Shown: positions 6,853 through 30,954 of the stretch, one piece after another
Position numbering within the stretch: position 1 is the first letter of the stretch
Layout: each line of letters starts with the position of its first letter
NCBI GenBank assembly: GCA_038891615.1
Contig: JAWADY010000002.1
Span: forward strand, 64,994 to 128,993
Reading direction: 5' to 3'
DNA: 64,000 nt
Origin: Candidatus Woesearchaeota archaeon
GTDB taxonomy: Archaea > Nanobdellota > Nanobdellia > Woesearchaeales > ARS49
The notes under the pieces: model-generated
Databases searched by the model: none
The model's input: only the letters and a program-made list of their open reading frames with translations
Told to the model about the DNA's origin: nothing
Position numbers and translations under genes: made by a program

Positions 6853-7820
6853 TTCCAAAGCACAGAAAAGGCCAGATAGAAGCGCCAGTAAGTTGGATAT
6901 TCATACTTATTGCAGGAGCTGTAATCCTTCTTTTTTTCTTTTCAACAACCATTAAGTTGCGTGACATTGCAAAACAAAAGCTTTCAATAACCCTTTTGTC
7001 AAACTTAGATGCACTCATCTCTAGCTCATCCGTTGCAAAAGGTACAAGCCAGCTGCTGCCGATTTATGACCAGCAACTTGTTTTTGAATGTACACAGGCT
7101 TGTCTTTGCGAGCTTTCAGTCCTTGGCGCAAAAAAGCCATTTAAAGACAGGCTGATTTTTGCTCAGCAAAAGGTTTTTGGAAGAAATGCGCTATTTTGGG
7201 CTCTTGACTGGAAGGAGCCATTCAGGATTGCTAATTTTCTTTACATAACAGACAGCTCAAGCAAATATTGGTTGGTTGGGGATTCGAGCAGCGAACCACT
7301 TAAGACAATAAAGTTCCTCCTTCCTAAGAATCTTAGTGCGGAGTTCGTAGACTCCACCCAAAACATCAAGCCAGGAAATTTCAAGAAAAGCAGGATTGTT
7401 CTTTTTGACAAAGCACTGGATGAAAGCCTTGCAGATAGTTTTCCCAAAGCATCTGAGCTAACATTACTTGTTGTCAACACCCAGAACAAAGAGCTTAAGT
7501 GGTACAAGAGAAAAGGTAGCAAGCTGGAAGTGCTGTCAAATGAAGGGGCGGATAACTACAAAAGCATTCCCCATCTTTTGGGAGCAATTTTTAGTGACGA
7601 GCCGCAGCTTTACGCCTGCCAACAAGCAGCTTCTGAGGACAGGAAAGCGGCCATAAAAGAAATCTATGTTGCACGTGTGCAAAAATTGATGCAAATTGTG
7701 CCAGAAGAACGTGGTTGCAGCGCGCTTTACGAAGAGACGTTCAAAAACATTAACGCTCCTGAGGCGCTTGAGGAGATTAATGAGGAATTGCTAAAAAAGA
7801 GTTGTCCAACAATATACTAA
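6831..7820 (+). CDS. prepilin-like protein, 329 aa
   Basis: N-terminus is MARSKLLIPKHRKGQ/IEAPVSWIFILIAGAVILLFFF (K-G-Q-I-E class III-type motif). It overlaps the upstream gene by 22 nt. Confidence 0.65.
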   Translation: MARSKLLIPKHRKGQIEAPVSWIFILIAGAVILLFFFSTTIKLRDIAKQKLSITLLSNLDALISSSSVAKGTSQLLPIYDQQLVFECTQACLCELSVLGAKKPFKDRLIFAQQKVFGRNALFWALDWKEPFRIANFLYITDSSSKYWLVGDSSSEPLKTIKFLLPKNLSAEFVDSTQNIKPGNFKKSRIVLFDKALDESLADSFPKASELTLLVVNTQNKELKWYKRKGSKLEVLSNEGADNYKSIPHLLGAIFSDEPQLYACQQAASEDRKAAIKEIYVARVQKLMQIVPEERGCSALYEETFKNINAPEALEEINEELLKKSCPTIY

Positions 7821-7821
7821 A

Positions 7822-8352
7822 ATGGCAAACAATGCATCTCCAAGCAAAAAGGCTCAGATAAAGATGTTTGAGAATATCGCTGTCCTCGTGATATTCTTTT
7901 TTCTTCTGGCTTTTGGTACAAGCTTTTACTTTACACTTCAAAAAAGTTCCCTTCAGCGTGAAATGGAACGCATTGCGCAGCTTGGAAACATTCAGCAGGC
8001 GCTTAGGCTTACATTCTTACCAGAGCTTGACTGCTCATTTGCTGCTGTACAAACTGAAAATTGTTTTGACAGGCTTAAGTTTGATGCTCTTGCAGATCAG
8101 CTTAAACCAGGTAGCCAGCGATGGCTTGAGTACTCTGCAATCCTTGGTTTTACTAGTATAAAACTAAAGACTGTTTATTCCAGCCTCTCTCCCCCGCCTG
8201 AAGAGAAACTTCTGTACGAAAGAAAGCTGAACGCAACTGCAATTCGCACAGAGATTCCTGTCTTGATTTGTGAAAACGGTTGCGACCCGCTAAATCAAAG
8301 CTATTCCTTCGGCATCCTTGAGGTGACAAGCTATGTTAGAAGGGCAACCTGA
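7822..8352 (+). CDS. prepilin-like protein, 176 aa
   Basis: N-terminus is MANNASPSKKAQ/IKMFENIAVLVIFFFLLAF. The start lies 1 nt after the upstream stop. Confidence 0.65.
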   Translation: MANNASPSKKAQIKMFENIAVLVIFFFLLAFGTSFYFTLQKSSLQREMERIAQLGNIQQALRLTFLPELDCSFAAVQTENCFDRLKFDALADQLKPGSQRWLEYSAILGFTSIKLKTVYSSLSPPPEEKLLYERKLNATAIRTEIPVLICENGCDPLNQSYSFGILEVTSYVRRAT

Positions 8353-8854
8353 TGGCATTGCTGTGTTGAAGGGATTAAAGAGAGCAAAAGGCGGGCAAAT
8401 GGAAATAATTGGTCTAACAATCATCATTCTTCTTGTTATAATTGGGGTGCTTTTTGGAATACAGTTTGTGCTCAAGGCAAAGCCGCCCACAATTGGACGA
8501 GAGTTTAGGGAATCGCAGTACGCAGCCAACTTCCTAAGCACTCTTACAGGTACAACAAGCGCATGTAATGGTTTGAGCATCACACAACTTTTACAGAACT
8601 GCGTGACAAGGACAGGGATTGACTGTCCATCAGGAAAGGGTGCTTGTGAGGAGGTTGAGGCTCTTATAGAAACAATCCTTGATAAAACAATTGGCAAGTC
8701 GGGACAAAACAGAGCATACCAACTTATGGTAAAAGGCAGCAACATTGACATTACTAAGTCTAATCGGGGAGGATGTCCGGGCGAAAAAGAGGTTGCAGAA
8801 CACACACTTCCAACAAGAGCTGGAGTAGTTTCTATACGCCTCGAGTTGTGCTAA
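8333..8854 (+). CDS. prepilin-like protein, 173 aa, Cys-containing
   Basis: N-terminus is ...LKRAKGGQ/MEIIGLTIIILLVIIGVLF. It overlaps the upstream gene by 20 nt and is the last gene of the operon. Confidence 0.6.
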   Translation: MLEGQPDGIAVLKGLKRAKGGQMEIIGLTIIILLVIIGVLFGIQFVLKAKPPTIGREFRESQYAANFLSTLTGTTSACNGLSITQLLQNCVTRTGIDCPSGKGACEEVEALIETILDKTIGKSGQNRAYQLMVKGSNIDITKSNRGGCPGEKEVAEHTLPTRAGVVSIRLELC

Positions 8855-13398: not shown

Positions 13399-13512
13399 AT
13401 GCACAAAAGAGGCGTTGAAAAAAGCACTTTGTTATACCTCATCCTAATCCTTATCTTTCTTGCGCTTGCAGCCTATATTCTTGTGAGAATTGCTGGGAGG
13501 ATTTTTGGATGA
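13399..13512 (+). CDS. 37-aa mini prepilin-like ORF (not in the supplied track)
   Basis: My translation is MHKRG/VEKSTLLYLILILIFLALAAYILVRIAGRIFG*. The stop overlaps the next start (ATGA at 13509-13512), and the orientation and operon are the same. Confidence 0.5.
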   Translation: MHKRGVEKSTLLYLILILIFLALAAYILVRIAGRIFG

Positions 13513-14225
13513 GCCTGCTCATTGTCAGAAGGAAGGGAATAACAGAAACAGGATTAGTGGCAATAATCCTTGTCCTTGCCTCTGGCATTGTTCTTGGAGC
13601 TCTTGTCTATCAGTTTACTGTTAAGGGGAAGCAGGTTGGCTCTATCGAGCTTTGCAGACAGAATGTGCTAACTGCTAGCAAAGTTGTAGCGCTTGGCAAA
13701 GCAGATATTTGGCCAATCACCAACTGCTTTACAGAAGACCTTGGCAAACTTCCAGAAAAAGAAGAAGAAGCCATTACTCTGATTGCCGAGGGTATTAGGA
13801 AGTGCTGGTACATGTGGGGCGAAGGAAAGCTAACTCCATGGAGCTCTACATGGCTATCAAGAAACATCATGTGTCATGTTTGTACGATGTTTGAGCCAAG
13901 CGCAGAAGTGAGTATTGAAAAGCTTCATGGTTGGATGAGGACTCACAACATTCCTGGCAAAGAATTAACCTACTATGACTTTTTGAAAGAAGGCTACATC
14001 CCTTTCATCTATCCAGCACTTGAAGAAGAAGCCAAAGCCAAAAAAGTTGACCTCACAAAAGGAATGAAATGGGCTGTCTTTTATGCCTATGGAACGCGCG
14101 CGGATTGGCTAAGATTTCCCCTCATTGGTGGACTTGTGCTTGAAGAACCAAAACAAGGCGTTGCCTTCCTGCCGACAAATGAACTCGGAGGCATATGTAC
14201 ATATACTACGATAAAACTCAAATGA
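13509..14225 (+). CDS. prepilin-like protein, 238 aa (CW..GEG..C.VC family, paralog a)
   Basis: N-terminus is MSLLIVRRKG/ITETGLVAIILVLASGIVLGALVY. The motif ...IRKCWYMWGEGKLTPW...MCHVCTMF is shared with the next gene. Confidence 0.7.
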   Translation: MSLLIVRRKGITETGLVAIILVLASGIVLGALVYQFTVKGKQVGSIELCRQNVLTASKVVALGKADIWPITNCFTEDLGKLPEKEEEAITLIAEGIRKCWYMWGEGKLTPWSSTWLSRNIMCHVCTMFEPSAEVSIEKLHGWMRTHNIPGKELTYYDFLKEGYIPFIYPALEEEAKAKKVDLTKGMKWAVFYAYGTRADWLRFPLIGGLVLEEPKQGVAFLPTNELGGICTYTTIKLK

Positions 14226-15145
14226 AAAGGGCGCAAGTAACAACACAGACACTCTTGGTAGTGCTCGTGCTTTTACTCGTAGCAGCTGTCATCTTTATTT
14301 CTTTTCAGACAAGACTCTTTGGCTTAGCAGAAGCCAAAAGTGCAAAGGATGTTTGCAAAACTTCTGTCTATGCCAATGCGCTGCTTGGAAGAAGTGTTGG
14401 AATCTTTTCTTCGGATATAAAATGTCCAACTCAGTATCTTCAGATAGACAATAGTGATGTTGCACATGCAAAGTTTGAGATTGCAAAAGCTCTGTCAGAT
14501 TGTTGGGAACAATTTGGAGAAGGCAGGCTTGAGCTTTTTTCTGGAGAAGGTGTTTTTTGTTCCGTATGTCATTTGATAACTTTTAAGCACAAAGAAAAAG
14601 CAATAAGCGGGCTTTTAGACTATCTTGCAACTAACAAAAAACCCCTTACTGACAAAAGCTATCTTGATTATCTAACAAGCTATCACACTTCAGGAAGCGA
14701 GGTTCTTAAGGCATATGCAGCTGAAAAGCTCCCGCCTGACATTCTTGACCCATCGCGAGGCAACACCTATGCAACAATCTTCTACTATGTCAAGGGTAAA
14801 GACCATGTGAAGGATGTTATTGAAAGAGCCCAAGCAGCAGCACCTGGCATTGGGCTTGAAGCACTTGGTATCGGATTGATAAAGGCAGGCAGTGCAACAG
14901 CTGGCTTGATTTCAGCAACCGGCATTGGTGCGCCTCTAGGTGTAGTTGTTGCAAAGGTCTCAACAATTGTCGGCGGAGTTTTGATTGTTGGCGGAGCAGG
15001 CTATGCCCTCCTCGCTGGTTGGTTCGGCGGAGTCCCTGTAGAATTCCTCTCACAAGTACGCCTCGAGCCTTACAACGAGCAAACGCTTAAAAACCTCGGA
15101 TGCCAAATCCTGCCTGCAGCTGAAAAAGCAGAGGTTGGAAGGTGA
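14222..15145 (+). CDS. prepilin-like protein, ~307 aa (paralog b) with a Gly-rich hydrophobic C-terminal region
   Basis: The start is taken at the ATGA overlap (14222): MKRAQ/VTTQTLLVVLVLLLVAAVIFISF. It carries the motif ...LSDCWEQFGEGRLELF...FCSVCHLITF. The C-terminal segment is GIGLEALGIGLIKAGSATAGLISATGIGAPLGVVVAKVSTIVGGVLIVGGAGYALLAGWFGG. Confidence 0.7.
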   Translation: MKRAQVTTQTLLVVLVLLLVAAVIFISFQTRLFGLAEAKSAKDVCKTSVYANALLGRSVGIFSSDIKCPTQYLQIDNSDVAHAKFEIAKALSDCWEQFGEGRLELFSGEGVFCSVCHLITFKHKEKAISGLLDYLATNKKPLTDKSYLDYLTSYHTSGSEVLKAYAAEKLPPDILDPSRGNTYATIFYYVKGKDHVKDVIERAQAAAPGIGLEALGIGLIKAGSATAGLISATGIGAPLGVVVAKVSTIVGGVLIVGGAGYALLAGWFGGVPVEFLSQVRLEPYNEQTLKNLGCQILPAAEKAEVGR

Positions 15146-15279
15146 TGAAAAAAGGCATATCCCGCGAGGCATTTGTTTACATACTCTTGGCACTTATTGC
15201 AATCCTCATTGGAGTAATCTTGATAATTTTTTGGGGAGGCGGGGCAGAAAAGGTCCTTAAGTCTCTTGGTTTGGGATAG
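15145..15279 (+). CDS. 44-aa mini prepilin-like ORF (not in the supplied track)
   Basis: My translation is MKKG/ISREAFVYILLALIAILIGVILIIFWGGGAEKVLKSLGLG*. The start overlaps the upstream stop by 1 nt (TGATG). Confidence 0.5.
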   Translation: MKKGISREAFVYILLALIAILIGVILIIFWGGGAEKVLKSLGLG

Positions 15280-15284
15280 CTCAA

Positions 15285-15641
15285 ATGGACAAAAAAGCTG
15301 TTGCAATAGAAACAATAGTCATCCTTCTCCTTGCACTTGTTGCTCTCCTTTTCTTTACAGTCCTTGGAGGAAAGCAGCTTCAATTGGGCAAGAAAATAAG
15401 CTTTTTCATGCCGGGCTGCCCAAAGGGTGTTTTAATAACCACAGAATGTCCATGTGATGGCCAAAAGATAAGTTCAGGTTATTGCTGTGATTTTGGACCA
15501 AGCCAAAAGCCTTGCTTTTGCGTAGAGCGAAATGTTAATAAGTGCGAGGATTACAAAAAGCAAGAGGATTGTGTAAGCAATCCTTGCCAAGTTCAAACTG
15601 CTTGCACCTTTGAACAAGGTGTTTGCAAAAGGGCTGGTTAA
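15285..15641 (+). CDS. Cys-rich prepilin-like protein, 118 aa (12 Cys)
   Basis: N-terminus is MDKKA/VAIETIVILLLALVALLFFTVLGG. The tail is CPKGVLITTECPCDGQKISSGYCCDFG... Confidence 0.7.
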   Translation: MDKKAVAIETIVILLLALVALLFFTVLGGKQLQLGKKISFFMPGCPKGVLITTECPCDGQKISSGYCCDFGPSQKPCFCVERNVNKCEDYKKQEDCVSNPCQVQTACTFEQGVCKRAG

Positions 15642-15645
15642 ATAA

Positions 15646-16071
15646 ATGGCAAAAAAAGGGGTAAGTGGAATACAGGTCGTCATAGCACTTTTGATTGGCA
15701 TCATAGTGCTCTATGTTGTTGTGGCTTTTATGCAAGCACAGTTCAAGAAGGCTGGAAAGAGTATCGAGGAAATAACTCCTTCCACAATCAGCTTTGCGCT
15801 GCAAGGCTGCAGGCTCCAAGCCGCACGAGGTTTTTCTGATGCAGATAAGGATGGATATCCCGACTTTTGTGATGTCTGCGAAGGCGGTGATGACGGAAAG
15901 CACAGCGATGCTGACTGGGTTCCAGATGATTGTGATGCGCATGAAAAAACAAAAGGGCTTCCTGCAAAGGAATGTGGTTGTGAAAAGCCAGAAATGGATT
16001 CTGAAGGCAGGCTGATAAAGAGCTGTGGGAGGCTTCTTTCAATCGAGCCATTTAAGTGCGCGAAAAAATGA
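15646..16071 (+). CDS. prepilin-like protein, 141 aa, with an acidic D-rich/Cys segment
   Basis: N-terminus is MAKKG/VSGIQVVIALLIGIIVLYVVVAF. The segment DADKDGYPDFCDVCEGGDDGKHSDADWVPDDCD looks like a Ca-binding site. Confidence 0.7.
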   Translation: MAKKGVSGIQVVIALLIGIIVLYVVVAFMQAQFKKAGKSIEEITPSTISFALQGCRLQAARGFSDADKDGYPDFCDVCEGGDDGKHSDADWVPDDCDAHEKTKGLPAKECGCEKPEMDSEGRLIKSCGRLLSIEPFKCAKK

Positions 16072-16088
16072 ATTTGGTAAAATGAAAA

Positions 16089-16949
16089 ATGAGCAAAAGG
16101 AAAGGCCAGGAAGAAGTTGGAAGGATGCTTTGGGAACTTGTTGCGCTGATACTGGCAGTAACTGTTATCATTGGAGGGATATTGTTTTTTGGAAGGGCAT
16201 TTGGATTTATTGGTGAGAGCAAAGAGGAACAGGACACAATCTCAAGCTTTTACAGCCTTGCAACAAAACTAAACGAACTGGCGCTGCTTTCAGAGTCATT
16301 CGTTCATGACAGGCTACCACTTTTTATTGGGGAAGGATTTGTAATTGTTGGCTTTGACAAAGCTGGAGATATTTCTGTCAATGGTTGCAGCGATGAAACA
16401 CATCTTGGAGTTCCAGCTACTGACCTCATCCCAAAGCCAGAGTTCTGTGGCGAGTTTGCTTGCATATGCCTCTATTCTGGCATTAGCGAAGAAGTCGGCG
16501 AGAAGCAGCCAATTTCTTGTGCCAAAATTTTCGCTGACAGATTGATTGGCTTGAGTAGTGCGTATCTTGAAAAAAACTATCCCTCTTTTGAGTCTTTTTG
16601 GAAAAACGCAATGGGCTCTCGTAGGGATAAGCCAGAACTACAAAGGTTCATGGTAACAGGGACAGAGCCTTTTAGCACTCTTCTCGAAAAAGACTATCCT
16701 CTTTTCCCAAGCTTTGAAAGCTACCCCTATACCTATTTTGTTCTTCATGGTGAGTGTGAAAACTGGTGGTTTGATGCCAACTTTGGCACACAAAGCCTCT
16801 ATCTTGAAAAAGTGAGGATAAAAGACAGGAACTATTTATTTATCACCGCAGACATCGAGGACTTTGTAAACAAAAGGGTTGCTGCAATAAAGGATTGGCT
16901 AGAGAAGCAAAAGAGTCAAGAGAAAGCCGAGGGAGGGCTGGTTGGTTGA
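16089..16949 (+). CDS. prepilin-like protein, 286 aa
   Basis: N-terminus is MSKRKGQ/EEVGRMLWELVALILAVTVIIGGILFF. Confidence 0.65.
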   Translation: MSKRKGQEEVGRMLWELVALILAVTVIIGGILFFGRAFGFIGESKEEQDTISSFYSLATKLNELALLSESFVHDRLPLFIGEGFVIVGFDKAGDISVNGCSDETHLGVPATDLIPKPEFCGEFACICLYSGISEEVGEKQPISCAKIFADRLIGLSSAYLEKNYPSFESFWKNAMGSRRDKPELQRFMVTGTEPFSTLLEKDYPLFPSFESYPYTYFVLHGECENWWFDANFGTQSLYLEKVRIKDRNYLFITADIEDFVNKRVAAIKDWLEKQKSQEKAEGGLVG

Positions 16950-17784
16950 AATGGTTGTGATTGGCAAGCGAGCCGTTGTTCATCCAGTTGCTCTGACAAT
17001 TGCAGAGCTTATTTTAGCCGCAATTATTGTCCTTGCAATGTACAATTTTGCCTCAAGGGCAAGAGAGCCTGGAAGGCTTGAAAAAGAGTTTGTTGCAAAA
17101 GACCTTGGCTTGCTGCTTGACGCCGTTTCCGTTGGCCAAGGGAGTTACTATTTGGTTTACACATCACCAGCCCTTCATCAAGATTTCAAGATTTCTGCAG
17201 GCGCCCACGAGGTTGTTGTTGATGGCTCAAGGCAGCCCTACGCATCTGGGCGTATAGAAATAAAAGGAGATTCCTTTGGAACAGATAAACTTGTGATCTG
17301 GTCTGAAACTGGAATTCTTGGCACGCCTTCAGCAGTCAAAGGTCACCTGCTACAGCTTCCTTGCGAAAGCCCACTGTCTTTTTCAACTGATAGGCAGCTT
17401 GCGGTAGCTGCTGATGATGGTGCCAAACAACTTGTTGAAAGACTTTTTGTCAAGGACTTAGGGAAAAGGCTGTTGTCAAATGATGAGAAAGGCGCAAGTG
17501 CGCTATTAAAAATTTTCACAGGAACAAAAAATGGGACAGCGAAGGCATATTTTTGGAAGGATGATAAGTCAGCAAGGTCGCTTGCATGCGCCCTTTTGAA
17601 CAGCATTGTCGCTTTTGAAGGAACCAATTCAGCCCTTCTTCTTCCGCTTAATCCTGAGCTTGCACCAAAGCGTTTTGCAGAGCTTGAGAAACAAAAGCCA
17701 GCTGTCTTCCTCGAGCTAGGCCCAGACCTTATTTCAAGCCCTGAACTTGCTCAGGCACTTTATGGTGGTGTTCGAAGTGGCTGA
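16942..17784 (+). CDS. prepilin-like protein, ~277-280 aa
   Basis: N-terminus is (MVE)MVVIGKRA/VVHPVALTIAELILAAIIVLAM. The track start is TTG at 16942; the ATG at 16951 lies 1 nt after the upstream TGA. Confidence 0.6.
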   Translation: MVEMVVIGKRAVVHPVALTIAELILAAIIVLAMYNFASRAREPGRLEKEFVAKDLGLLLDAVSVGQGSYYLVYTSPALHQDFKISAGAHEVVVDGSRQPYASGRIEIKGDSFGTDKLVIWSETGILGTPSAVKGHLLQLPCESPLSFSTDRQLAVAADDGAKQLVERLFVKDLGKRLLSNDEKGASALLKIFTGTKNGTAKAYFWKDDKSARSLACALLNSIVAFEGTNSALLLPLNPELAPKRFAELEKQKPAVFLELGPDLISSPELAQALYGGVRSG

Positions 17785-18901: not shown

Positions 18902-19870
18902 ATGGTCAAATCAAACAAACGCGCAACAATCTTTTTTGAACCACTAATACTTTTGGGGTTAATCGTTGCTCTTAGCATCGCAGCTATTTCTGTTAGCCAA
19001 AAAAGGTCCTCTTTTGGAACAATTGGCAGACCAGCTGCTGACCTTCTTAATTACAATGACTTTGGTGAAGAACTTCTTTTTAAGGTTGAACAAGCAGCGA
19101 GGTTTGCAGTTCGCGATGCGCTTTATGAGTTGGGTGCAAATGGTTGGAGTGCTGAAGGTCCAAACTTAGGTTGTGATAGCCAGCCAATTGGCAAGCCTTT
19201 GCTTATCGAGAGCTTTCCTACACCACAGGAGATTGTTGAAGAACTAACAAAAATTTCTGATAGGAAGCTTAGGGCTTATTCGCTCAGGGCTTCGCAGCTC
19301 CTTGGTCTTGGGAGGTTGGGCTTCCACTTGCCAACAGGTATTGAATATGAGTGGTTTGTTGAGCACTCTGGTGGGCTGTTGAGAGTGAGTGGCATTGCTG
19401 ACAAGCCAGTTACCTTCTCATTTAGCTCATACGAGGTAGGTAAACCAACACTCTACGGCCAGCCGCTGCCACTGCCAACTGCTTCAGTTGTTTTTATTCC
19501 TCTTGAACGTCCAAAACAGCCAGAAGCCCTGCTCTTGCTTTATGGCAATTATTCGATAAGGCCGTCCTTCACAGTCTGGATAGATTACGACCTTTTCGGC
19601 GTCTATGAAAGAATAAAAGAAGGCGTTGAGCAACTCAAAACAATCATTCAGGAAAACAGGGCTCTTGGTTTTGAGGTGACAGACCTGGCGCTCAAAAACA
19701 AAGTCAAGGAGCTGAATTCTGCGCAGGGAGAGCTTGTTTGGCAAGTCCCTAAGAGGACAAGTGAAGATCCGGCTATCTACTCTTTTGTTATTTCTCATAA
19801 GAAGCAGCTTTTAGGATGCAGTCAGCCTATTCAAATAAGGTTTGCGATGAGAATTCCATTAGCTGCTTGA
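18902..19870 (+). CDS. prepilin-like protein, 322 aa; last gene of the operon
   Basis: N-terminus is MVKSNKRA/TIFFEPLILLGLIVALSIAAISV. The start lies 1 nt after the upstream stop. Confidence 0.65.
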   Translation: MVKSNKRATIFFEPLILLGLIVALSIAAISVSQKRSSFGTIGRPAADLLNYNDFGEELLFKVEQAARFAVRDALYELGANGWSAEGPNLGCDSQPIGKPLLIESFPTPQEIVEELTKISDRKLRAYSLRASQLLGLGRLGFHLPTGIEYEWFVEHSGGLLRVSGIADKPVTFSFSSYEVGKPTLYGQPLPLPTASVVFIPLERPKQPEALLLLYGNYSIRPSFTVWIDYDLFGVYERIKEGVEQLKTIIQENRALGFEVTDLALKNKVKELNSAQGELVWQVPKRTSEDPAIYSFVISHKKQLLGCSQPIQIRFAMRIPLAA

Positions 19871-23814: not shown

Positions 23815-24417
23815 ATGGCAGTCGAATCACAGTTTTTGGTCCCTCAAGAACTCTATCTTAAGTCCGGCATACACATAGGGACAAAGTTTAAGACTAGGTA
23901 TATGGCCCCCTTTATTTACAAGACAAGGCCTGACGGGCTTGCCGTGCTCAACCTGCAAAAAATAGACCAACGAATAGGTATTGCAGCAAACCTTCTCGCA
24001 CAATTTGCTCCAGAAGACATCGTTGTTGTTAGCAGGAGAGAGAATAGTTGGAAGGCTGTCAAGGCTTTTGGCAAGGTTGTTGGCTGCAGGGTGTTCGCTG
24101 GAAGATATCCCCCTGGAATAATTACAAATCCTAGGCTTGAAAGCTACATGGAGGCAAAGATTTTTCTTGTTACTGATGCCTGGCCTGATAGAAATGCAAT
24201 AAATGATGCTCTTTCGCTTGGTATCCCTGTAATTGCGCTCTGCGATACCAATAACACTGCAAACAACATCGACCTAGTCATTCCATGCAACAATAAGGGG
24301 AAGAAAAGTCTAGGTTTGCTTTTTTTCATACTAGCGAGGGAATATCTCCGAAGACGAGGTCTTCTTGGCAAGGACGAGGAGCCTAAATTTACCCTCGAAG
24401 ACTTTGTTGAGGAATAA
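23815..24417 (+). CDS. rps2: 30S ribosomal protein uS2
   Basis: The sequence LYLKSGIHIGTKFKTRYMAPFIYKTRPDGLAVLNLQKID...VIALCDTNN is the archaeal S2 pattern. Confidence 0.92.
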   Translation: MAVESQFLVPQELYLKSGIHIGTKFKTRYMAPFIYKTRPDGLAVLNLQKIDQRIGIAANLLAQFAPEDIVVVSRRENSWKAVKAFGKVVGCRVFAGRYPPGIITNPRLESYMEAKIFLVTDAWPDRNAINDALSLGIPVIALCDTNNTANNIDLVIPCNNKGKKSLGLLFFILAREYLRRRGLLGKDEEPKFTLEDFVEE

Positions 24418-25162
24418 TTTTATCGACGGCAGCTTTTAGCCCTTCCGGCACAATCTCAAAAAGAAGTTCGCGTTCTCCAGCAATACTCCTGTGCTTGCGA
24501 AGGATTGCTTTTCTCAGTCCACCATGACCAATCTGAAGCTCAATAAGACACTTGCTGCCATACTTCAGAATGTCTCCTCCTACCATTGCCATCCTGCGGC
24601 CGCTGGCATGATTGCCATGCCACGCCAAAGGCTGTTCTAGCCTTTCCTCACGCTCAAATGTGCTATAAACCTGGTTTGTAAGAAGGACAGGGATTTTCTT
24701 CTTTCTCGCGATTTCAGTTAAGCCTGCAACCTGTAAGCCAAGCTCTCTATTAAAATTTCCACTACTGTTTCCTATCTTCCTTTCGAGCCTGTAGAGCATG
24801 GATATAGTATCGACAACAATCAATCCTATTTTCTGGTTTACCAGACTTTTCAGCCTTTCAATGCTTCTTTTTTGTTGTTGAAAGGTTGTTGGGTTTAGAA
24901 AAATTATTTTCTCTAAAATTGGCTTGTAGTTTTTGGCAAGCTGTTTCAGTCTTGCTACCGAGAAACCTCCTTCTGTATCAACAAATATTGTTTTTTTCCC
25001 ACGCTCTGCCGTTGCAATAGCAGCCAAAAGAGCGAGTGTTGTCTTTCCTGCCCCTGCAGGTCCATAAATTGTCGTAACAGCATCCTGCTCGTATCCACCT
25101 TCCAAAAAGGCATCAAGCAAAGAAGAGCCTGTCGGAACTCTCTGCTCGGTCAAGGTTACCAT
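24389..25162 (-). CDS. radB: RadB-like (RadA paralog / KaiC-fold) ATPase
   Basis: Motifs are VPTGSSLLDAFLEGG, Walker A GPAGAGKTT and Walker B LIVVDTIS. There is no N-terminal HhH domain. The 3' end overlaps rps2 convergently by 29 nt. Confidence 0.8.
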   Translation of the reverse strand: MVTLTEQRVPTGSSLLDAFLEGGYEQDAVTTIYGPAGAGKTTLALLAAIATAERGKKTIFVDTEGGFSVARLKQLAKNYKPILEKIIFLNPTTFQQQKRSIERLKSLVNQKIGLIVVDTISMLYRLERKIGNSSGNFNRELGLQVAGLTEIARKKKIPVLLTNQVYSTFEREERLEQPLAWHGNHASGRRMAMVGGDILKYGSKCLIELQIGHGGLRKAILRKHRSIAGERELLFEIVPEGLKAAVDKIIPQQSLRG

Positions 25163-25299: not shown

Positions 25300-26553
25300 A
25301 TGAACCCTATATTAAGTTTTTTTGTATGGACTGCTATATGTATTTCCCTTTACTTTTCAGTCTTTTGGCTACTTGTATTCATTGAGGGAGATGTTCAAAC
25401 AAGGCAGCGCACTACAAAGCTAAAGCGCTTTCCTTACATCTCCGTTGTAGTTCCTGCATTTAATGAGGAAACTCATATTACCGAAACCCTCCATTCCCTT
25501 CTCAATCTAGATTATCCAAAGAAAAGGCTTGAAATAATTGTAGTGGATGATGGGAGCACTGATCGCACAGCAGAGATGGTCCAAAGCATAGCCAGGAAAT
25601 TCAGCGACAGGAAGATAAAACTTATTCGCAAGGTAAATGGGGGAAAGGGAAGCGCGCTGAATGCAGGGCTCAAAAAGGCCAAAGGGGAGTTATTTGTCTG
25701 CATGGATGCGGATTCTATTGTGCTGCCTGACGCCCTCCGCAAAGCACTCATCCACTTTGAACCTGATGTGGCAGCAGTCCTGCCATTGCTGAAAGTGAAG
25801 AATCCAAAAGCTGTTGTTCAGAAAATGCAATGGTTTGAATACCTTATCAACATGTTTTACAAGAAGCTTCTTTCAAAGCTAAACTGCATTCATGTCGCAC
25901 CAGGCCCCTTCTCCGTCTACAGAACAGCCGTCCTTAAGGAGGTTGGCGGATTTGATGAGCACAATCTTACTGAAGACCTTGAGATGACCCTTCGTTTGCA
26001 ATCAAAGAACTATAGAATCGTTCAGCTTGATAACACCAGCGTGTACACAATCTCACCACATTCTTTTAAAGAGTTTTATAAACAGCGCAACAGATGGTAC
26101 AAAGGAACTCTTCTTAACCTTGCAAAATATAAACATATGATTTTTAACTCAAAGTATGGCGATTTCGGCCTATTTCAGCTTCCTTCTGTCCTGCTTACAG
26201 GGGTTGTTGCACTGATCCTTTTCTCCTCTTTTGTGTGGGACAAGCTAAAGCCTTCTTTCGATTTTCTGTACAGGCTCAAATTCGTTAACTTTGATTTTAT
26301 GACGCTACTCCGTGATTTTCATTTTGAAATAAAATTCTTAGATTTAGACATCCGATGGCTCTTCACTTTTGCGATTGTCATGACTCTCGCAATTTTCATC
26401 CTTATCAAGTCCCATCAGCTGACCAAGGAGCGCATTAAGCCAAAAAGCACCATCCCGCTTTTGATCTATCTTTTTGGTTACTATGCCCTGCTAACCATTG
26501 TTTGGATAACTGTTCTTTTTGAACTCGCAATTGGCAGAAGGCAGAGGTGGTAG
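25300..26553 (+). CDS. membrane-integrated processive family-2 glycosyltransferase (cellulose/chitin/PNAG-synthase-like)
   Basis: The D, DxD, TED and QxxRW motif set is present: VVDDGSTD, CMDADS, LTEDLEMT and KQRNRWYKG. TM helices flank it at the N- and C-termini. Confidence 0.88.
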   Translation: MNPILSFFVWTAICISLYFSVFWLLVFIEGDVQTRQRTTKLKRFPYISVVVPAFNEETHITETLHSLLNLDYPKKRLEIIVVDDGSTDRTAEMVQSIARKFSDRKIKLIRKVNGGKGSALNAGLKKAKGELFVCMDADSIVLPDALRKALIHFEPDVAAVLPLLKVKNPKAVVQKMQWFEYLINMFYKKLLSKLNCIHVAPGPFSVYRTAVLKEVGGFDEHNLTEDLEMTLRLQSKNYRIVQLDNTSVYTISPHSFKEFYKQRNRWYKGTLLNLAKYKHMIFNSKYGDFGLFQLPSVLLTGVVALILFSSFVWDKLKPSFDFLYRLKFVNFDFMTLLRDFHFEIKFLDLDIRWLFTFAIVMTLAIFILIKSHQLTKERIKPKSTIPLLIYLFGYYALLTIVWITVLFELAIGRRQRW

Positions 26554-27249
26554 ATGGTTGAACGTACGATAAGCAAATCTAAATACATTCTTGCAGCTCT
26601 AATAACTGGCGTAATCTTTTTGCTTGGAATTGCCCTTGGCTTGGTTATTGAGGGCAAGAGGGTAACTTATGTTCAGGATTTTATGGATTCCCAACGAATT
26701 GAATTTACGAGCTCACAACTCCAATACAGCTATTTGAAGGAGCTAAACAGGAAGGATGATTGTCCTGCAATTTACGAGATATTTTATTCAAACCTGCGAA
26801 ACCTTGAGCGAACAGGAGCCCGCTTGGAAGGATACGCAGTCAACAGCAAAATAAATGACGAGGCTTTTAATCGCTTAAAGAGGGAGTACGTGCTTGAGGA
26901 ATTGCGATACTGGCTTCTTGCAAAACAAGCCAAAGAGTTGTGTGAAGACAAATTTATTACAATGCTGTATTTCTATTCGGATGATGAGCACTGTCCCCGC
27001 TGTGGCGACCAGGAATTCGTGCTGAACTATCTCAAAAAGGCTTTTGAACAGAAGCTACTTATTTTCTCACTTGATGAAAGGCTCAATGAGCCAATGATTT
27101 TGATTCTAAAAAAGCAATACAATCTAACAACTTTTCCAACCCTTATTGTTGAAGAAAAGAAATATGCTGGCTTCACTTCAAAGGATATCCTTCTTAAAGA
27201 GCTCTGCAGCAGACTTGATGCTCCACCTTGTGAGGCTTTAAGAAAGTAA
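26554..27249 (+). CDS. membrane-anchored thioredoxin-fold protein with a CPRC active site (putative extracytoplasmic thiol-disulfide oxidoreductase)
   Basis: An N-terminal TM (YILAALITGVIFLLGIALGLVI) is present. The thioredoxin-like core is ITMLYFYSDDEHCPRCGDQ...TTFPTLIV (CxxC plus a cis-Pro loop). The start immediately follows the GT2 stop. Confidence 0.7.
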   Translation: MVERTISKSKYILAALITGVIFLLGIALGLVIEGKRVTYVQDFMDSQRIEFTSSQLQYSYLKELNRKDDCPAIYEIFYSNLRNLERTGARLEGYAVNSKINDEAFNRLKREYVLEELRYWLLAKQAKELCEDKFITMLYFYSDDEHCPRCGDQEFVLNYLKKAFEQKLLIFSLDERLNEPMILILKKQYNLTTFPTLIVEEKKYAGFTSKDILLKELCSRLDAPPCEALRK

Positions 27250-27255
27250 AATTTC

Positions 27256-27645
27256 CTAGCAAGGTTCGCTCATCTCTGTAAGTGGTATCCTTAAGAGCCT
27301 TTCAAGCCTTTTTGCTTCTGCCAGTTCTGGCAAAAGCTCTCCGTTCTCAAACTTGCGAAGCACTGATTCCCTCACAGCAATCCTTGATGCAAACTCCTTT
27401 TGGGTCAAGCCTGTCTTTTCCCTCGTAATCCTCAATTTTTCTCCAAAATCGCTTACAACCCGCTCTATCGCCTTTTTTTCTGCAGGAAAACTTTGAGGTT
27501 TTGCCTGACTCTTTTTGACGGCTTCAGTTGGCAAAACAGTCAAAACTTTTCCAAACCGGCTGCAGCTCTTGCAAAGCCAAAGCTCTGCACCTTCAACTAA
27601 ACACCTTGCAAAGCTTTTTGTCCGATTACATATTTCACAAAGCAT
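27256..27645 (-). CDS. mbf1: multiprotein bridging factor 1 (aMBF1), Zn ribbon plus HTH
   Basis: The N-terminal Zn ribbon is CEICNRT...CKSC. The C-terminal cro-like HTH is GLTQKEFASRIAVRESVLRKFENGE. Confidence 0.88.
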   Translation of the reverse strand: MLCEICNRTKSFARCLVEGAELWLCKSCSRFGKVLTVLPTEAVKKSQAKPQSFPAEKKAIERVVSDFGEKLRITREKTGLTQKEFASRIAVRESVLRKFENGELLPELAEAKRLERLLRIPLTEMSEPC

Positions 27646-28133: not shown

Positions 28134-29213
28134 ATGGTTCAAAAAGAGGAGCTAAAAAAAATTATTTGTTCAGCGCTTTCTTCTGGAATATCTCGTAAGG
28201 AGCTTGAAAATTTTCTTGCAGAGTTCGGTTGGCCACAAGAGATGGTTCATGAATATATCAACATCGACTGCGACAACCTCCCAATAATTTATGTTCGTGG
28301 AGTATCAAAAAGCTTTGGGAAGCATCAGGTTCTGCAAGATGTTACTTTTCATATCAATAAAGGTGAAATACTTGGTATAATCGGCGCAAGTGGCGTCGGA
28401 AAGACAACCCTTCTTAACATCATTGTTGGTTTTGTTCAACCAGATTCTGGAGAGATTGTTTTAAATATTCCACATAAGCCTGGCTGGGGTGGTTCGCGTG
28501 ATGTCAAAAGGATGTTTGGGTTTGCAGCGCAAACCCCTAGCTTTTATCCACACCTAACTGCGCGCGAAAACATTGAACACTTTGCCGCGCTCTACGGCTT
28601 CACAAAAGCTGAGCGCAGGCTAAGGGCAGAATCACTGCTAAAGCTCGTAGGACTTTCAGATTTCGCAGAATTACTTGCTTCACAGTTGTCTGGTGGAATG
28701 CAAAAACGTCTTGATATAGCCTGCGCCCTTGTGCACAACCCTCCCATTCTAATACTAGATGAGCCTGTTGCTGACATTGATTTGCTTCTTAGGCAGCAAA
28801 TGTGGAACTTAATAAAAGCAATAAACAAGCGCGGCACAACGGTCATTATAGCTTCACACTTCCTTCTTGAGCTTGAAAGCTTGTGCACAAGAATTGCGCT
28901 CTTGCACAAAAAAAAGATTACACAAATTGGAAGTCCTCCAGAGCTCAGCTCGGCTCTTCTAAAAAAGCACAGGATGACCTTGGAGCTAGCCTCACGCAAC
29001 TATACCCAACTTTTTTCAGAACTTGCCCGCGACCCAAAGCTTAAGTGTCAGTTTTTTATTCAAGAAGGCAAAGCGGTGTTGTTGACAGAAAGTCCTGAAG
29101 AACTTCTACACGCGCTTGTGCACATACTTGAACGCTCAAAAGACACTCTGCTAGAGTTGAATATTTCAAAGCCAACATTAAAGGAGCTGTTTGAGGTAGT
29201 GGAAAAGGGATAA
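28134..29213 (+). CDS. ABC transporter ATP-binding protein (ABC-2/DrrA-like) with N- and C-terminal extensions
   Basis: Motifs are Walker A GASGVGKTT, signature LSGGMQKR and Walker B ILILDEP. Confidence 0.9.
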   Translation: MVQKEELKKIICSALSSGISRKELENFLAEFGWPQEMVHEYINIDCDNLPIIYVRGVSKSFGKHQVLQDVTFHINKGEILGIIGASGVGKTTLLNIIVGFVQPDSGEIVLNIPHKPGWGGSRDVKRMFGFAAQTPSFYPHLTARENIEHFAALYGFTKAERRLRAESLLKLVGLSDFAELLASQLSGGMQKRLDIACALVHNPPILILDEPVADIDLLLRQQMWNLIKAINKRGTTVIIASHFLLELESLCTRIALLHKKKITQIGSPPELSSALLKKHRMTLELASRNYTQLFSELARDPKLKCQFFIQEGKAVLLTESPEELLHALVHILERSKDTLLELNISKPTLKELFEVVEKG

Positions 29214-29217
29214 TGCG

Positions 29218-30954
29218 ATGAGCGCGCTAATTGAACTAATACGAAAGAATCTCCTTCTTCTTGTTAGGGCTAGGGCTTCAGCATCGATTGTTGTATTTGG
29301 GCCGATGCTAGTGATATTTGTGGCTGGGCTTGCATTCGACAATATCGGTACCTATAACGTGCGAGTCGGGGTCTATTCTGCACACTTTAACGAGCTCTCA
29401 GAGTCCTTTGTGCAAACGCTCTCAAAGAACAGCATGAAGATTTCGCGTTTTGATTCCGAAAACAGCTGTGTTGACGCAGTCAGAGGAGGAGCGCTTCATA
29501 CCTGTATCGTCTTTTCGCCAGATTTCACTCTTGGTAAAGATGCAGCAAATGAGCTTTCCTTTCATATAGATCCCTCTAAAATAAACCTTGTCTGGGTGAT
29601 TCTTGAATCCCTTTCCTCAGCTGTCGCTGAAAGGACAAGGGAGCTTTCACTTAATCTTACCTCTGTTGCAATCAGAGCTATTGAGATAACTGATAATGAA
29701 CTCTCTGGTAAAAAACCCGTTGTTATCCAGCTAGCAACTGAAAACGAAGAGGTTTCGCAAAAGGCATCAGAGATAAGAGAGCGTCTTGGCCGACTTGATC
29801 TCGGCATTAATAAGTCAGCATTTGGAATTGAGGTTATGTCAAAAAGGCAAGAAGACATTCAAAATCATCTAGAAGAACTCAAGGCAATCTCAAATGAACT
29901 CGTGGGCAGCGTCGCTGAAAGGTTGAACAGAGCCAAAGATCTCGTTGAAAGTAGCGAACTGAACTCCACGATAAAAGAGAACATAACCGAAGCTCTGGCA
30001 AGGGCAAGGAACAGCCTTTCTTCTTTTGTCTCAACAATAAATCTAACAATGAATGCAACAACCACAAGCTTTGCTGAAGTTAACGCTTCATTACAGAACC
30101 TTGTTTATCATGTTGAAACAACTGCCAACAAGCTTCAAGCAGTAGAAGAAACAAGAAATAGAGTCTTTGCAACTCTTGAAGCAGCAAAAGCAGAGCTGGA
30201 CAGTTCACTACTCGGAATTGCTTCTATTCAAAACTCCCTCAACAAAATTTCATCCATACTCTCAATGGTTCAAATTCGTGAACCAGAAAAGATTGTCCAA
30301 CCCATCACAACTGTAATAAAGCCAGTTGTTGCACAAAAGACTTATCTGAACTACATTTTCCCAATCCTTGTCATTCTTATTCTCATGTTCACCGCGCTTT
30401 TACTTGCTCCAACTTTGATACTCTTAGAGAAAAAATCAGCAGCCTTTTTTAGAAACTTCATGGCTCCAACTCCAGGTGTTGTACATCTTGGTTCAGTCTT
30501 TATAAGCTCTGGAATTATCCTTATCTTACAGCTTGCAGTACTCTTGGGAATCGCAGCCATAGGTTTCAAAGCTCAAATTACAACAAACATTGTCGCAACA
30601 GCAATAATCCTTTTCATTTTGCTCATCCTTTTTATAACTCTTGGAATGATTTTGGGATACCTTTTTAATTCAGAAGAAACGGCAATGCTAGCGGCTATTG
30701 CACTTGGTTCTGTTTTTCTCTTCCTGTCAGACATAATCATCCCCATAGAGACCATGCCACCGGCTATAGAAGGGATGGCAAAACTGAACCCCCTTATCCT
30801 TGGCGGCCTTGCTCTTCGAAGAGCTATCATTTTCGGTGCGACACTTCAAGAACTATGGAAGGAGGTTGCAATTTTAGGAGGATATATTCTTGTCGCAGGA
30901 CTTTTTGTTTTAGCAGCTTATTTATCAGGCAAGAGCAGGCAAAAAAATATTTAA
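29218..30954 (+). CDS. ABC-2-type permease with a large coiled-coil extracytoplasmic loop (YhgE/Pip-like architecture)
   Basis: An N-terminal TM is followed by a ~330-aa helical loop and 5 C-terminal TMs. It lies immediately downstream of the ATPase. Confidence 0.8.
   Translation: MSALIELIRKNLLLLVRARASASIVVFGPMLVIFVAGLAFDNIGTYNVRVGVYSAHFNELSESFVQTLSKNSMKISRFDSENSCVDAVRGGALHTCIVFSPDFTLGKDAANELSFHIDPSKINLVWVILESLSSAVAERTRELSLNLTSVAIRAIEITDNELSGKKPVVIQLATENEEVSQKASEIRERLGRLDLGINKSAFGIEVMSKRQEDIQNHLEELKAISNELVGSVAERLNRAKDLVESSELNSTIKENITEALARARNSLSSFVSTINLTMNATTTSFAEVNASLQNLVYHVETTANKLQAVEETRNRVFATLEAAKAELDSSLLGIASIQNSLNKISSILSMVQIREPEKIVQPITTVIKPVVAQKTYLNYIFPILVILILMFTALLLAPTLILLEKKSAAFFRNFMAPTPGVVHLGSVFISSGIILILQLAVLLGIAAIGFKAQITTNIVATAIILFILLILFITLGMILGYLFNSEETAMLAAIALGSVFLFLSDIIIPIETMPPAIEGMAKLNPLILGGLALRRAIIFGATLQELWKEVAILGGYILVAGLFVLAAYLSGKSRQKNI

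Follow-up and report, generated by a model that had tools for sequence, protein, structure and literature searches.

A GT2 glycosyltransferase and a stalked thioredoxin-fold protein as a candidate two-subunit membrane glycan synthase of DPANN archaea

BcsB, IcaD and PgaD are membrane-anchored partners that are encoded right after their GT2 glycosyltransferase and are required for its activity. In BcsB, the single transmembrane (TM) helix is itself required for activity, and IcaD and PgaD are small membrane proteins, encoded immediately after the GT2, that act as subunits. In Streptomyces, the cellulose-synthase-like GT2 CslA forms a complex with GlxA, a co-encoded, N-terminally anchored extracytoplasmic redox enzyme (PMC11022532). 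In eukaryotic oligosaccharyltransferase, the subunits Ost3, Ost6, MagT1 and Tusc3 provide a membrane glycosyltransferase machine with a permanently bound, non-cytoplasmic thioredoxin-fold domain that carries a CxxC motif (PMC4137057). Almost nothing is known of the surface biology of DPANN archaea, which live attached to other cells. The locus described here lies within a window of 64 kb (the whole stretch of 64,000 nucleotides analysed, from Candidatus Woesearchaeota) and comprises a GT2 gene and the gene that follows it, the product of which is referred to as the partner. We consider it somewhat probable that the products of the two genes form a two-subunit membrane glycan synthase characteristic of DPANN archaea. 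By analogy with BcsB, IcaD and PgaD, the partner is best read as a dedicated accessory subunit, a general Dsb-type oxidase being less likely.

Both open reading frames are present on the plus strand at the positions given in the preliminary description, with the partner start directly abutting the GT2 stop (Table 1). The GT2 stop codon TAG occupies 26551-26553, and the partner ATG follows at 26554 in the same frame. On the other side of the GT2 gene, a 137-nt spacer leads to the divergent RadB gene; because RadB is encoded on the minus strand, the pair needs a promoter of its own within this spacer. A TATA-like sequence, TTTTTTAA, is located there, 33-40 nt 5' of the GT2 start.

Table 1 Coordinates of the gene pair, its domains and its upstream region within the window.
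Feature	Position	Strand	Description
RadB gene	24389-25162	-	Divergent neighbour of GT2
Possible archaeal TATA-like element TTTTTTAA	25260..25267	+	Read from sequence; putative function
GT2 glycosyltransferase gene	25300..26553	+	417 aa; cellulose-synthase-like membrane fold; proposed catalytic subunit
GT2 TM helix 1 (aa 3-28), then positively charged cytoplasmic linker	25306..25383	+	Hydropathy; AF2 helix 3-28
GT-A catalytic domain (aa 45-270)	25432..26109	+	Four motifs within
GT-A motif codons	DDGSTD 25540-25563; DAD in CMDADS 25699-25716; TED 25969-25989; QRNRW 26083-26097	+	
GT2 C-terminal membrane region (aa 284-411)	26149..26532	+	Helices 284-328, 351-375, 384-411
Partner gene	26554..27249	+	231 aa; predicted type II single-pass membrane protein: helical stalk and thioredoxin-fold head; undescribed family
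Partner TM helix (aa 12-32)	26587..26649	+	Invariant face A14, T18, I21, F22, G25, G29
Three-helix stalk (aa 33-131)	26650..26946	+	Juxtamembrane EGKR; SxQLQY aa 53-58; C70 26761-26763; C130 26941-26943
Thioredoxin-fold head (aa 132-217)	26947..27204	+	CPRC 26992-27003; cis-Pro loop TFPTL 27130-27144
C-terminal tail, third cysteine pair	27205..27249	+	C218 27205-27207; C226 27229-27231

In the GT2 protein, the catalytic motifs VVDDGSTD, CMDADS, TEDLEMT and QRNRWYKG are located at aa 81, 134, 224 and 262, and residues D84, D136, D138, E225, D226, Q262, R263, R265 and W266 are invariant across 55 homologues, as are L17, F19, F22 and W23 of helix 1. Hydropathy and the AF2 model agree on one N-terminal and three C-terminal TM helices. 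The protein matches PF13641 (E 5e-38), PF00535 (E 1e-37) and PF13632 (E 1e-23). It has the features of the cellulose-synthase-like group (BcsA, HAS, Chs, NodC and PgaC): a GT-A domain with D, DxD, TED (the catalytic base) and QxxRW, and a catalytic domain that rests on interface helices and a TM bundle. The stretch from TED to QxxRW aligns to BcsA (E 4e-6), its only match among solved structures. The best structural neighbour, PcManGT, is an archaeal membrane GT2 not known as a polymer synthase, and its sequence similarity to the window protein ends at residue 242, before QxxRW. The transferase function of PcManGT could not be confirmed experimentally (PMC8993221). The closest curated family is TIGR03937 (PgaC/IcaA; E 8e-49, colinear over residues 20-289); the score of 166.6 bits lies far under the equivalog cutoff of 422.3, so the protein is not a PgaC/IcaA orthologue.

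The motif set and its flanking TM helices had previously been taken as the signature of synthases that polymerise and export a glycan. All of these elements are present, but they are not unique to such enzymes, and the set is necessary but insufficient for a polymer-exporting synthase. By structure and by sequence, GT2 falls in the membrane-embedded cellulose-synthase-like group and not among the polyprenyl-phosphate transferases of the DPMS/GtrB/ArnC type. The profile of the DPMS/GtrB/ArnC type (full-length similarity including the C-terminal TM helices, a phosphate acceptor and no QxxRW) is not found in GT2. A polyprenyl-phosphate GT2 of the DPMS/GtrB type, feeding neighbouring GT-C enzymes, was rejected on sequence and fold.

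The partner consists of an N-terminal TM helix, a helical spacer and a thioredoxin-like core, with CPRC at aa 147 and TFPTL at aa 193, as the preliminary description had it. In the AF2 model (pLDDT 86.6), helices span residues 8-63, 67-97 and 102-130, and the head displays the β-α-β-α-β-β-α core of the thioredoxin fold, with CxxC at the N-terminus of helix 1 and the cis-Pro before strand 3. The TM helix is the best-conserved segment, with a mean top-residue frequency of 0.68 versus 0.64 in the thioredoxin domain. Its conservation is one-sided (F-x2-G-x3-G), and 79 species-level homologues retain the A[TS][IVL]FGG pattern, the most divergent of them at about 31% identity to the window protein. 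A cleavable signal peptide was rejected, because this hydrophobic helix is the best-conserved part of the protein and, in the model, runs on into the stalk helix. The flanks of the helix carry net charges of about +2.8 on the N-terminal side and about -0.4 on the C-terminal side (30 homologues), and by the positive-inside rule the thioredoxin domain is predicted to face outside, as previously proposed.

In the stalk, C70 and C130 are kept in 129/129 cluster representatives and in 79/79 genome loci, and the geometry of the modelled helices suggests a disulfide between them. No homologue of the stalk is found in PDB or Pfam. The pair C218/C226, for which a disulfide is likewise predicted, is invariant in 26 close homologues and missing from about one third of the wider family, in which 78 members have six cysteines and 42 have four. 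In the head, the middle dipeptide of CxxC is hypervariable, with more than 40 variants, and the motif is less conserved than the TM face and C70/C130. More than 80-90% of members nevertheless retain both CxxC and the cis-Pro, arranged in canonical catalytic geometry. One clade is without CxxC yet still linked to GT2; it accounts for 12 of 64 metagenome loci and also includes L077, L089 and P0034.

A profile search collects 1,264 clusters of the partner family at 50% identity. The window protein, for which NCBI has a 100% identical 'hypothetical protein' from a Ca. Woesearchaeota MAG, has no match in NCBIfam, and its Pfam scores lie below the gathering thresholds of both TraF (19.4, cutoff 23) and HyaE (17.9, cutoff 22). 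Homologues reach 17-27 bits against Trx-clan models (TraF, Thioredoxin, HyaE), with only two marginally above the TraF cutoff, and the partner falls outside PF00085 and related Trx-clan families. The features proposed to define the family are a length of about 215-245 aa, an N-terminal TM helix with F-x2-G-x3-G, QLQ[YF], C70/C130, a thioredoxin head with cis-Pro, and a gene directly downstream of GT2; all are present in the window protein, and they hold in 79 genome and 64 metagenome loci. On these sequence features, the partners form a new family, the DPANN GT2-associated stalked thioredoxin-fold proteins, covered by no Pfam or NCBIfam model. In literature on thioredoxin, glycosyltransferase, cellulose synthase and disulfides in Woesearchaeota and DPANN archaea, no description of the pair or of the partner family was found.

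The gene pair proves far more strongly conserved than the preliminary description had guessed. In 73/73 partner-anchored species-level genomes with enough flank, which span Woesearchaeota, Nanoarchaeota and Aenigmatarchaeota, GT2 is the next gene upstream on the same strand. The linkage is kept in Aenigmatarchaeota, where the partners are only 31-35% identical to the window protein. Anchored on GT2, metagenome loci have the partner at most 1.6 kb downstream in 64 of 65 cases, as the direct neighbour in 56, and the same arrangement appears in 4/4 further GT2-anchored loci. Some clades carry an inserted 338-aa gene. The two genes abut or overlap in most loci, and in one genome two tandem GT2 and partner pairs indicate co-duplication. 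When the neighbourhoods of 165 loci are clustered, the pair is the sole constant and the flanks vary. An APC-corrected mutual-information scan of GT2 against the partner, underpowered at 132 unique pairs (Neff ~105), gives a top z of about 5 and no coherent cluster.

Within these flanks, the immediate neighbours of the pair include GT-C genes (GT22/PMT_2 at E 1e-17; PMT_2/DUF6541/EpsG-like) in 53/71 genome loci; two GT-C families each occur in about half of the 165 loci. Roughly one half to three quarters of related loci have PMT_2/GT22-like GT-C genes beside the pair. The window is unlike many of these loci, as no GT-C gene is detected in its 64 kb by tblastn or by Pfam searches of the ten largest other ORFs. 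A GT-C neighbour is also undetected in most of the distant, Aenigmatarchaeota-type loci, which leaves the pair alone as the conserved core.

The window does encode Cys-rich exported proteins, as noted earlier (one of 1826 aa has 78 Cys). Two N-terminally anchored CxxC ORFs (13509-15145) were rejected as thioredoxin-like proteins, having neither Trx-like features nor Pfam matches. Cysteine counts are even in 13/13 N-terminally anchored or exported ORFs of the window that contain Cys, versus 18/35 ORFs without a TM segment (Fisher p = 0.001). This all-even bias indicates that disulfides are formed outside the cell and makes the question of their catalyst addressable. The partner could be read as that catalyst: a DsbA-, MdbA- or TlpA-like thiol-disulfide oxidoreductase of general use outside the cell, by which Cys-rich adhesins and pilins are folded and whose operon with GT2 merely co-regulates surface biogenesis. 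Its thioredoxin fold, in which CxxC opens helix α1 and the cis-Pro is conserved, its predicted outside ectodomain and the need for a catalyst all accord with this role, and no other candidate is seen in the window. However, the near-obligate link to one enzyme, kept across DPANN lineages whose partners share only 31-35% identity with the window protein, is at odds with a housekeeping role. The TM helix is better conserved than the catalytic head, the CxxC dipeptide varies widely although it tunes redox potential in Dsb and Trx families, and the clade without CxxC retains both the protein and its GT2 neighbour. In the partner, the helices lie N-terminal to the fold and are not inserted as in DsbA, the more than 40 dipeptides contrast with the conserved CPHC type, NCBIfam gives nothing and the Trx-clan Pfam scores are sub-threshold only. 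No DsbB-, VKOR- or CcdA-like candidate is detected in the window, where the small multi-pass membrane ORFs are without cysteines, or in the conserved neighbourhood, and neither contains a Cys-bearing 4-TM partner. The earlier proposal of an oxidative-folding catalyst for adhesins and pilins thus finds no support, and a general oxidase is judged unlikely; linkage, TM conservation, dipeptide variability and CxxC loss together point to a dedicated synthase subunit more than to a Dsb enzyme with a housekeeping task.

The GT-C genes beside the pair hint that it belongs to a lipid-linked glycosylation pathway and does not make a free exopolysaccharide. In such a pathway, GT2 would add one or a few sugars to a dolichol-linked or other lipid acceptor, the GT-C enzymes would act as transferases on the outer face, and the partner, in the manner of Ost3/Ost6/MagT1, would hold Cys-containing substrates by mixed disulfides for glycosylation. 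PcManGT, the best structural neighbour of GT2, is linked to N-glycan assembly, and MagT1, Ost3 and Ost6 are thioredoxin-fold CxxC subunits of a GT-C complex (PMC4137057). This pathway is possible, if on the unlikely side: the window and most of the distant loci do without a detected GT-C gene, the partner is tied to GT2 and not to GT-C or STT3, and its single N-terminal TM helix, with no Ost3/Ost6-type Pfam match, differs from the Ost3/6 architecture. The clade without CxxC argues against an obligatory mixed-disulfide mechanism, and the BcsA match and the PgaC/IcaA family affinity of GT2 also speak against the pathway. The hypervariable dipeptide, the loss of CxxC in one clade, the invariant non-catalytic cysteines C70 and C130 and the conserved polar/aromatic SxQLQ[YF] motif on the stalk would suit a redox-inert structural or glycan-binding head, with CxxC as a structural disulfide and the partner as a stalk-like spacer or a chain-length or anchoring factor for the glycan. 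This is very improbable given the retention of CxxC and cis-Pro in catalytic geometry in most members, and no carbohydrate-binding fold or motif is detected in the partner.

In the favoured arrangement of a two-subunit synthase, GT2 would be a minimal cellulose-synthase-like catalytic subunit, approximately in the size class of IcaA, PgaC and NodC. It would take a nucleotide sugar from the cytoplasm and use the TED base and the QxxRW acceptor site to lengthen a membrane-located sugar acceptor. Most likely, the product, a glycan putatively made processively, would be passed outward through or along the TM bundle of GT2. Four TM helices, with one more from the partner if bound, are few for a translocation channel, and this counts against the synthase reading. 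The TM helix of the partner, oriented N-in/C-out, would contact GT2 by packing its small-residue face, F-x2-G-x3-G, on the four GT2 helices. In the ectodomain, a three-helix stalk of about 45 Å, putatively stapled by the invariant C70-C130, would hold the thioredoxin-fold head above the outer face of the membrane, where the glycan or acceptor emerges. The head, with CxxC and cis-Pro in most lineages, probably performs or senses local thiol-disulfide chemistry. The retention of both in more than 80-90% of members suggests that redox chemistry matters in most lineages and that the substrate range may be broader; the loss of CxxC in one clade suggests that it is dispensable for the conserved core role.

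A more doubtful extension is that the partner represents a new class of synthase subunit coupling thiol-disulfide chemistry to glycan synthesis on the DPANN surface. In one version, the partner would possibly gate or prime GT2 by redox state; in another, it would possibly capture Cys-rich surface proteins by mixed disulfide where the glycan emerges. It could also be the missing extracytoplasmic disulfide catalyst of quinone-poor symbionts. With clades that have and that lack CxxC, the family constitutes a natural experiment on a thioredoxin head at a glycosyltransferase. A large partner family tied almost one-to-one to GT2 provides a concrete candidate for a lineage-wide surface-glycan machine.

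In comparison with known systems, the pair resembles BcsA-BcsB in having a co-encoded extracytoplasmic partner on a single TM anchor. BcsB differs in its C-terminal anchor, its size of about 700 aa, its carbohydrate-binding and flavodoxin-like domains and its lack of CxxC, and it shows no sequence or fold relation to the partner; BcsA has eight TM helices and a PilZ domain, whereas GT2 has four and no PilZ. IcaA/PgaC, the closest curated family, is of similar size (about 410-440 aa), but IcaD/PgaD are two-TM proteins without an ectodomain, and the deacetylase (IcaB/PgaB) or porin partner of the Ica/Pga systems is absent here. PcManGT (Pyrobaculum calidifontis, PDB 6yv7) is likewise archaeal and has a minimal cellulose-synthase-like fold; unlike GT2, it is without the N-terminal TM helix, and no thioredoxin-fold neighbour is on record for it here. 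GlxA of the CslA-GlxA complex is bacterial, a radical copper oxidase and not a thioredoxin fold, with no homology to the partner. TlpA, ResA, CcmG, MdbA and DsbA share with the partner an N-terminal anchor, an extracytoplasmic thioredoxin fold, CxxC and cis-Pro; the partner has neither the DsbA helical insertion nor TlpA/ResA-type extensions. Relative to these membrane-anchored bacterial thioredoxin-like proteins, its 100-residue three-helix stalk with an invariant Cys pair is unique, and its CxxC dipeptide is hypervariable. Ost3/Ost6-type proteins combine an N-terminal thioredoxin domain with four TM helices and serve the GT-C enzyme STT3, whereas the window protein has one N-terminal TM helix and a stalk and is linked to a GT2. 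Capture by mixed disulfide, if true, would make the pair a GT2-based equivalent, in prokaryotes, of the OST-MagT1/Ost3 assembly of eukaryotes.

The GT2 glycosyltransferase and its partner form a self-contained two-gene unit, since the flanking RadB and HTH regulator genes both lie on the minus strand. As the preliminary description had claimed, the partner gene starts immediately after GT2: the stop codon TAG directly abuts the partner ATG, without a gap and in the same frame, and all the motifs quoted there for the two proteins lie where it placed them. At 100% identity, the partner matches an NCBI 'hypothetical protein' from a Candidatus Woesearchaeota MAG, and archaeal housekeeping genes surround the pair (RadA, RadB, ribosomal protein S2, aminoacyl-tRNA synthetases). 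Tandem class II aminoacyl-tRNA synthetase paralogues, each with tRNA-synt_2 and an OB anticodon-binding domain, are probably an AspRS/AsnRS-type pair, with 6 Cys in one and none in the other. An ABC ATPase is paired with an ABC-2 type permease carrying, between TM helix 1 and the later TM helices, a ~330-residue insertion predicted to be helical or coiled-coil with weak PspA/IM30 and Snapin matches; this permease is not conserved beside the GT2 pair in other genomes.

Coordinates of features in the window and in collected loci (L numbers) carrying the GT2/partner pair
Feature	Sequence	Position	Strand
GT2 (ORF, 417 aa)	window	25300-26553	+
GT2 C-terminal tail (aa 406-417)	window	26515-26550	
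Partner (ORF, 231 aa)	window	26554-27249	+
RadB, upstream neighbour of pair	window	24389-25162	-
HTH regulator, downstream neighbour of pair	window	27256-27645	-
ABC ATPase	window	28134-29213	
ABC-2 type permease	window	29218-30954	+
Aminoacyl-tRNA synthetase paralogues	window	50075-51385; 51432-52739	-
Anchored or exported protein cluster	window	875-6355	+
Same cluster, ORFs	window	6352-8854; 13509-17784; 18902-19870	
Paralogue, 238 aa	window	13509-14225	+
Paralogue, 316 aa	window	14195-15145	+
Inserted 338-aa ORF	L151	4261-5277	
Two tandem GT2+partner pairs	L054	1507-5663	
GT-C examples near pair	L004	1925-4689; 6704-8062	
GT-C example near pair	L007	6951-8372	
GT-C examples, upstream genes	L001, L005		
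STT3/AglB-rotamase fusion	L004	11255-12717	
aRF1	L005, L006	1-1264	

GT2 adds a new member to an already known superfamily. Pfam matches are strong (PF13641 5e-38, PF00535 1e-37, PF13632 1e-23), and of the curated families PgaC/IcaA (TIGR03937) fits best, at E 8e-49 and with colinearity across residues 20-289; its 166.6 bits fall far under the 422.3-bit cutoff, and the CelA, NodC and GT21-type models rank below it. Of the solved structures, Rhodobacter BcsA matches the sequence best (E 2e-21), in an alignment spanning TED and QxxRW, and BcsA is the sole match for the isolated TED..QxxRW segment (E 4e-6). All 55 homologues share D84, D136, D138, E225, D226, Q262, R263, R265 and W266, together with several TM1 residues. 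The AF2 model (pLDDT 81.5, pTM 0.80) has a GT-A domain behind an N-terminal TM helix, QRNRW on an interface helix, and three long C-terminal helices. Together, the family, structure-match, motif and model evidence places GT2 in the cellulose-synthase-like group, as a minimal, membrane-embedded member; any processivity is putative. A polyprenyl-phosphate glycosyltransferase identity is ruled out, the DPMS, GtrB and ArnC matches being confined to residues 46-150. The best structural neighbour, PcManGT of Pyrobaculum calidifontis (PDB 6yv7), is to our knowledge no known polymerase. Experimental confirmation of PcManGT as a transferase failed (PMC8993221). The GT2 family also has a conserved basic tail, G-K/R-K/R-Q-K/R-W, ending in the final residue W417, likewise invariant in the 55 homologues; its position recalls motifs of the gating-loop or WGTR type in other synthases, and its membrane side is ambiguous by charge rules.

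The partner has no NCBIfam match, and its Pfam matches, TraF and HyaE, are both sub-threshold. Its AF2 model, with 26 homologues, is confident (pLDDT 86.6). Its first helix covers residues 8-63, the hydrophobic segment 12-32 among them; long helices at 67-97 and 102-130 come next, and then a b-a-b-a-b-b-a domain, whose own first helix starts with CPRC and whose strand 3 has Pro195 just ahead of it. Over 30 homologues the N-terminal flank holds 3.5 Lys/Arg against 0.7 Asp/Glu, and the 15 residues past the TM helix are slightly acidic. These charges give a predicted N-in/C-out orientation, in agreement with the outside thioredoxin head proposed earlier. The extramembrane stretch of helix 1, 31 residues or ~45 Å, should place the head roughly 45 Å above the membrane. 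Helix geometry and conservation predict C70-C130 and C218-C226 disulfides.

A profile search against 1.84 billion representatives returns 1,264 partner clusters, 949 at E<=1e-10; among the best 150 of the 1,264, nearly all are 215-245 aa long. C70 and C130 are kept in 129/129 full-length representatives, the cis-Pro in 128 and CxxC in ~119, with middle dipeptides of >40 kinds. Six cysteines occur in 78 representatives and four in 42, the four-Cys members being without the C218/C226 pair. Conservation peaks in the TM helix, whose invariant residues (A14, T18, I21, F22, G25, G29) lie on a single face, and the A[TS][IVL]FGG pattern within it is kept, like the stalk motif QLQ[YF], in 79 species-level genomes, to ~31% identity with the window partner. 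Both CxxC cysteines have been lost from one coherent clade ('YFYDENKDETQGD'), which keeps C70, C130 and the remainder; further CxxC-less members are L077, L089 and the homologue P0034. In the 'YFYDENKDETQGD' clade a soluble 338-aa ORF lies between GT2 and partner (L151, L140, L152, L154, L158, L161, L167); it has no Pfam match and could be a replacement or additional subunit.

Synteny of the pair is conserved, with differing flanks in every look-up (3 partner-anchored and 4 GT2-anchored proteins). A scan at one genome per species yields 80 partner loci from Woesearchaeota, Nanoarchaeota, Aenigmatarchaeota and a few evidently mislabelled MAGs. Wherever the upstream flank measures at least 1.3 kb (73 loci), a GT2 orthologue lies immediately upstream on the same strand, in one case with a 0.4-kb spacer, and the two alignments end <=24 nt apart in most species-level loci. 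The converse set, anchored on GT2, comprises 65 metagenome loci whose downstream flank reaches 700 nt or more; the partner directly adjoins GT2 in 56, a single 338-aa gene precedes it in 8, all of the CxxC-less clade, and unrelated opposite-strand genes intervene in one. In the L054 genome, GT2 and partner have been duplicated together and have diverged together: the second GT2 shares 27% and the second partner 25% identity with its window counterpart.

Neighbourhood clustering of 165 loci finds only GT2 and partner near-universal (161 each), followed by GT-C-like membrane proteins (an upstream ~485-aa family in 84, a downstream GT22/PMT_2 family in 83), the HTH regulator (72) and RadB (44). 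A few kb from the pair in the Nanoarchaeota locus L004, an STT3/AglB oligosaccharyltransferase is fused to rotamase (PPIase) domains (1159 aa, running past the locus end), and in L005 and L006 the peptide-chain release factor aRF1 is split by an intein with a LAGLIDADG endonuclease. Odd labels occur among the species-representative MAGs with this DPANN-specific locus: many read 'uncultured Methanosarcinales archaeon' (L013, L014, L015, L070 and many others), one 'Candidatus Binatia bacterium' and one 'Methanobacteriota archaeon'; window-like RadB and HTH genes are detected in several oddly labelled loci, and the labels look wrong, or the bins contaminated.

Abutting, near-obligate linkage at ~31-35% partner identity, co-duplication, and a TM helix with a small-residue packing face that is more conserved than the 'catalytic' head are typical of a stoichiometric subunit and not of a housekeeping oxidoreductase. 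The hypervariable CxxC dipeptide and the loss of CxxC in a clade that keeps the GT2 linkage show that the conserved core function is something other than thiol-disulfide catalysis; retention of CxxC and cis-Pro in >80-90% of members implies a role for redox chemistry, or for a redox-sensitive disulfide, in most lineages. A two-subunit glycan synthase with putative glycan, export and redox roles is therefore favoured, and modestly probable. An underpowered covariation scan over 132 GT2/partner pairs gave no clear inter-protein signal. The retention of CxxC and cis-Pro also makes a redox-inert structural or glycan-handling head, to which the CxxC-less clade would conform, improbable. An Ost3-like role in a lipid-linked glycosylation pathway, alongside the frequently adjacent GT-C enzymes, is a less probable alternative: about half to three quarters of related loci have one to three GT-C-type genes (GT22/PMT_2, DUF6541, EpsG-like matches) beside the pair. 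The 64-kb window has none by tblastn and by Pfam on its ten largest other ORFs.

The preliminary description had proposed the partner as a candidate for the oxidative folding of Cys-rich exported proteins. Even cysteine counts are a classical signature of extracytoplasmic disulfide bonding, and they occur in 13/13 window ORFs that combine an N-terminal hydrophobic segment with one Cys or more, partner included (78, 4, 6, 4, 6, 6, 6, 12, 8, 6, 2, 2, 6), against 18/35 ORFs lacking a TM segment (binomial p = 1e-4; Fisher p = 0.001). This bias backs the premise that a catalyst is needed, but does not single out the partner. A general Dsb-type oxidase is not favoured and rather unlikely, given the near-obligate GT2 linkage, the TM helix conserved above the head and the CxxC-less clade. 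Proteins that are N-terminally anchored or exported are also clustered in the window; Pfam matches occur only in a 1826-aa protein (78 Cys, TSP3_bac repeats, Big_13 domain), and the Cys count is even in each cluster member that has Cys. Two overlapping N-terminal-TM paralogues with 6 Cys each have a common 'W..(W/F)GEG.L ... C.VC' motif, no family match and no thioredoxin-like look.

A stalked thioredoxin-fold protein as fixed GT2 partner falls outside Pfam and NCBIfam models, and literature searches found no paper on it. The two-subunit synthase is analogous in logic to BcsA-BcsB and to the synthase systems IcaA-IcaD and PgaC-PgaD. The same logic is followed by CslA-GlxA, in which a GT2 is accompanied by an anchored extracytoplasmic redox enzyme (PMC11022532), and by OST with MagT1 or Ost3/6, a glycosyltransferase having a thioredoxin-fold subunit (PMC4137057). 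We rate a synthase with an accessory membrane subunit as a known kind of arrangement, and the stalked thioredoxin-fold partner as a variant new to it.
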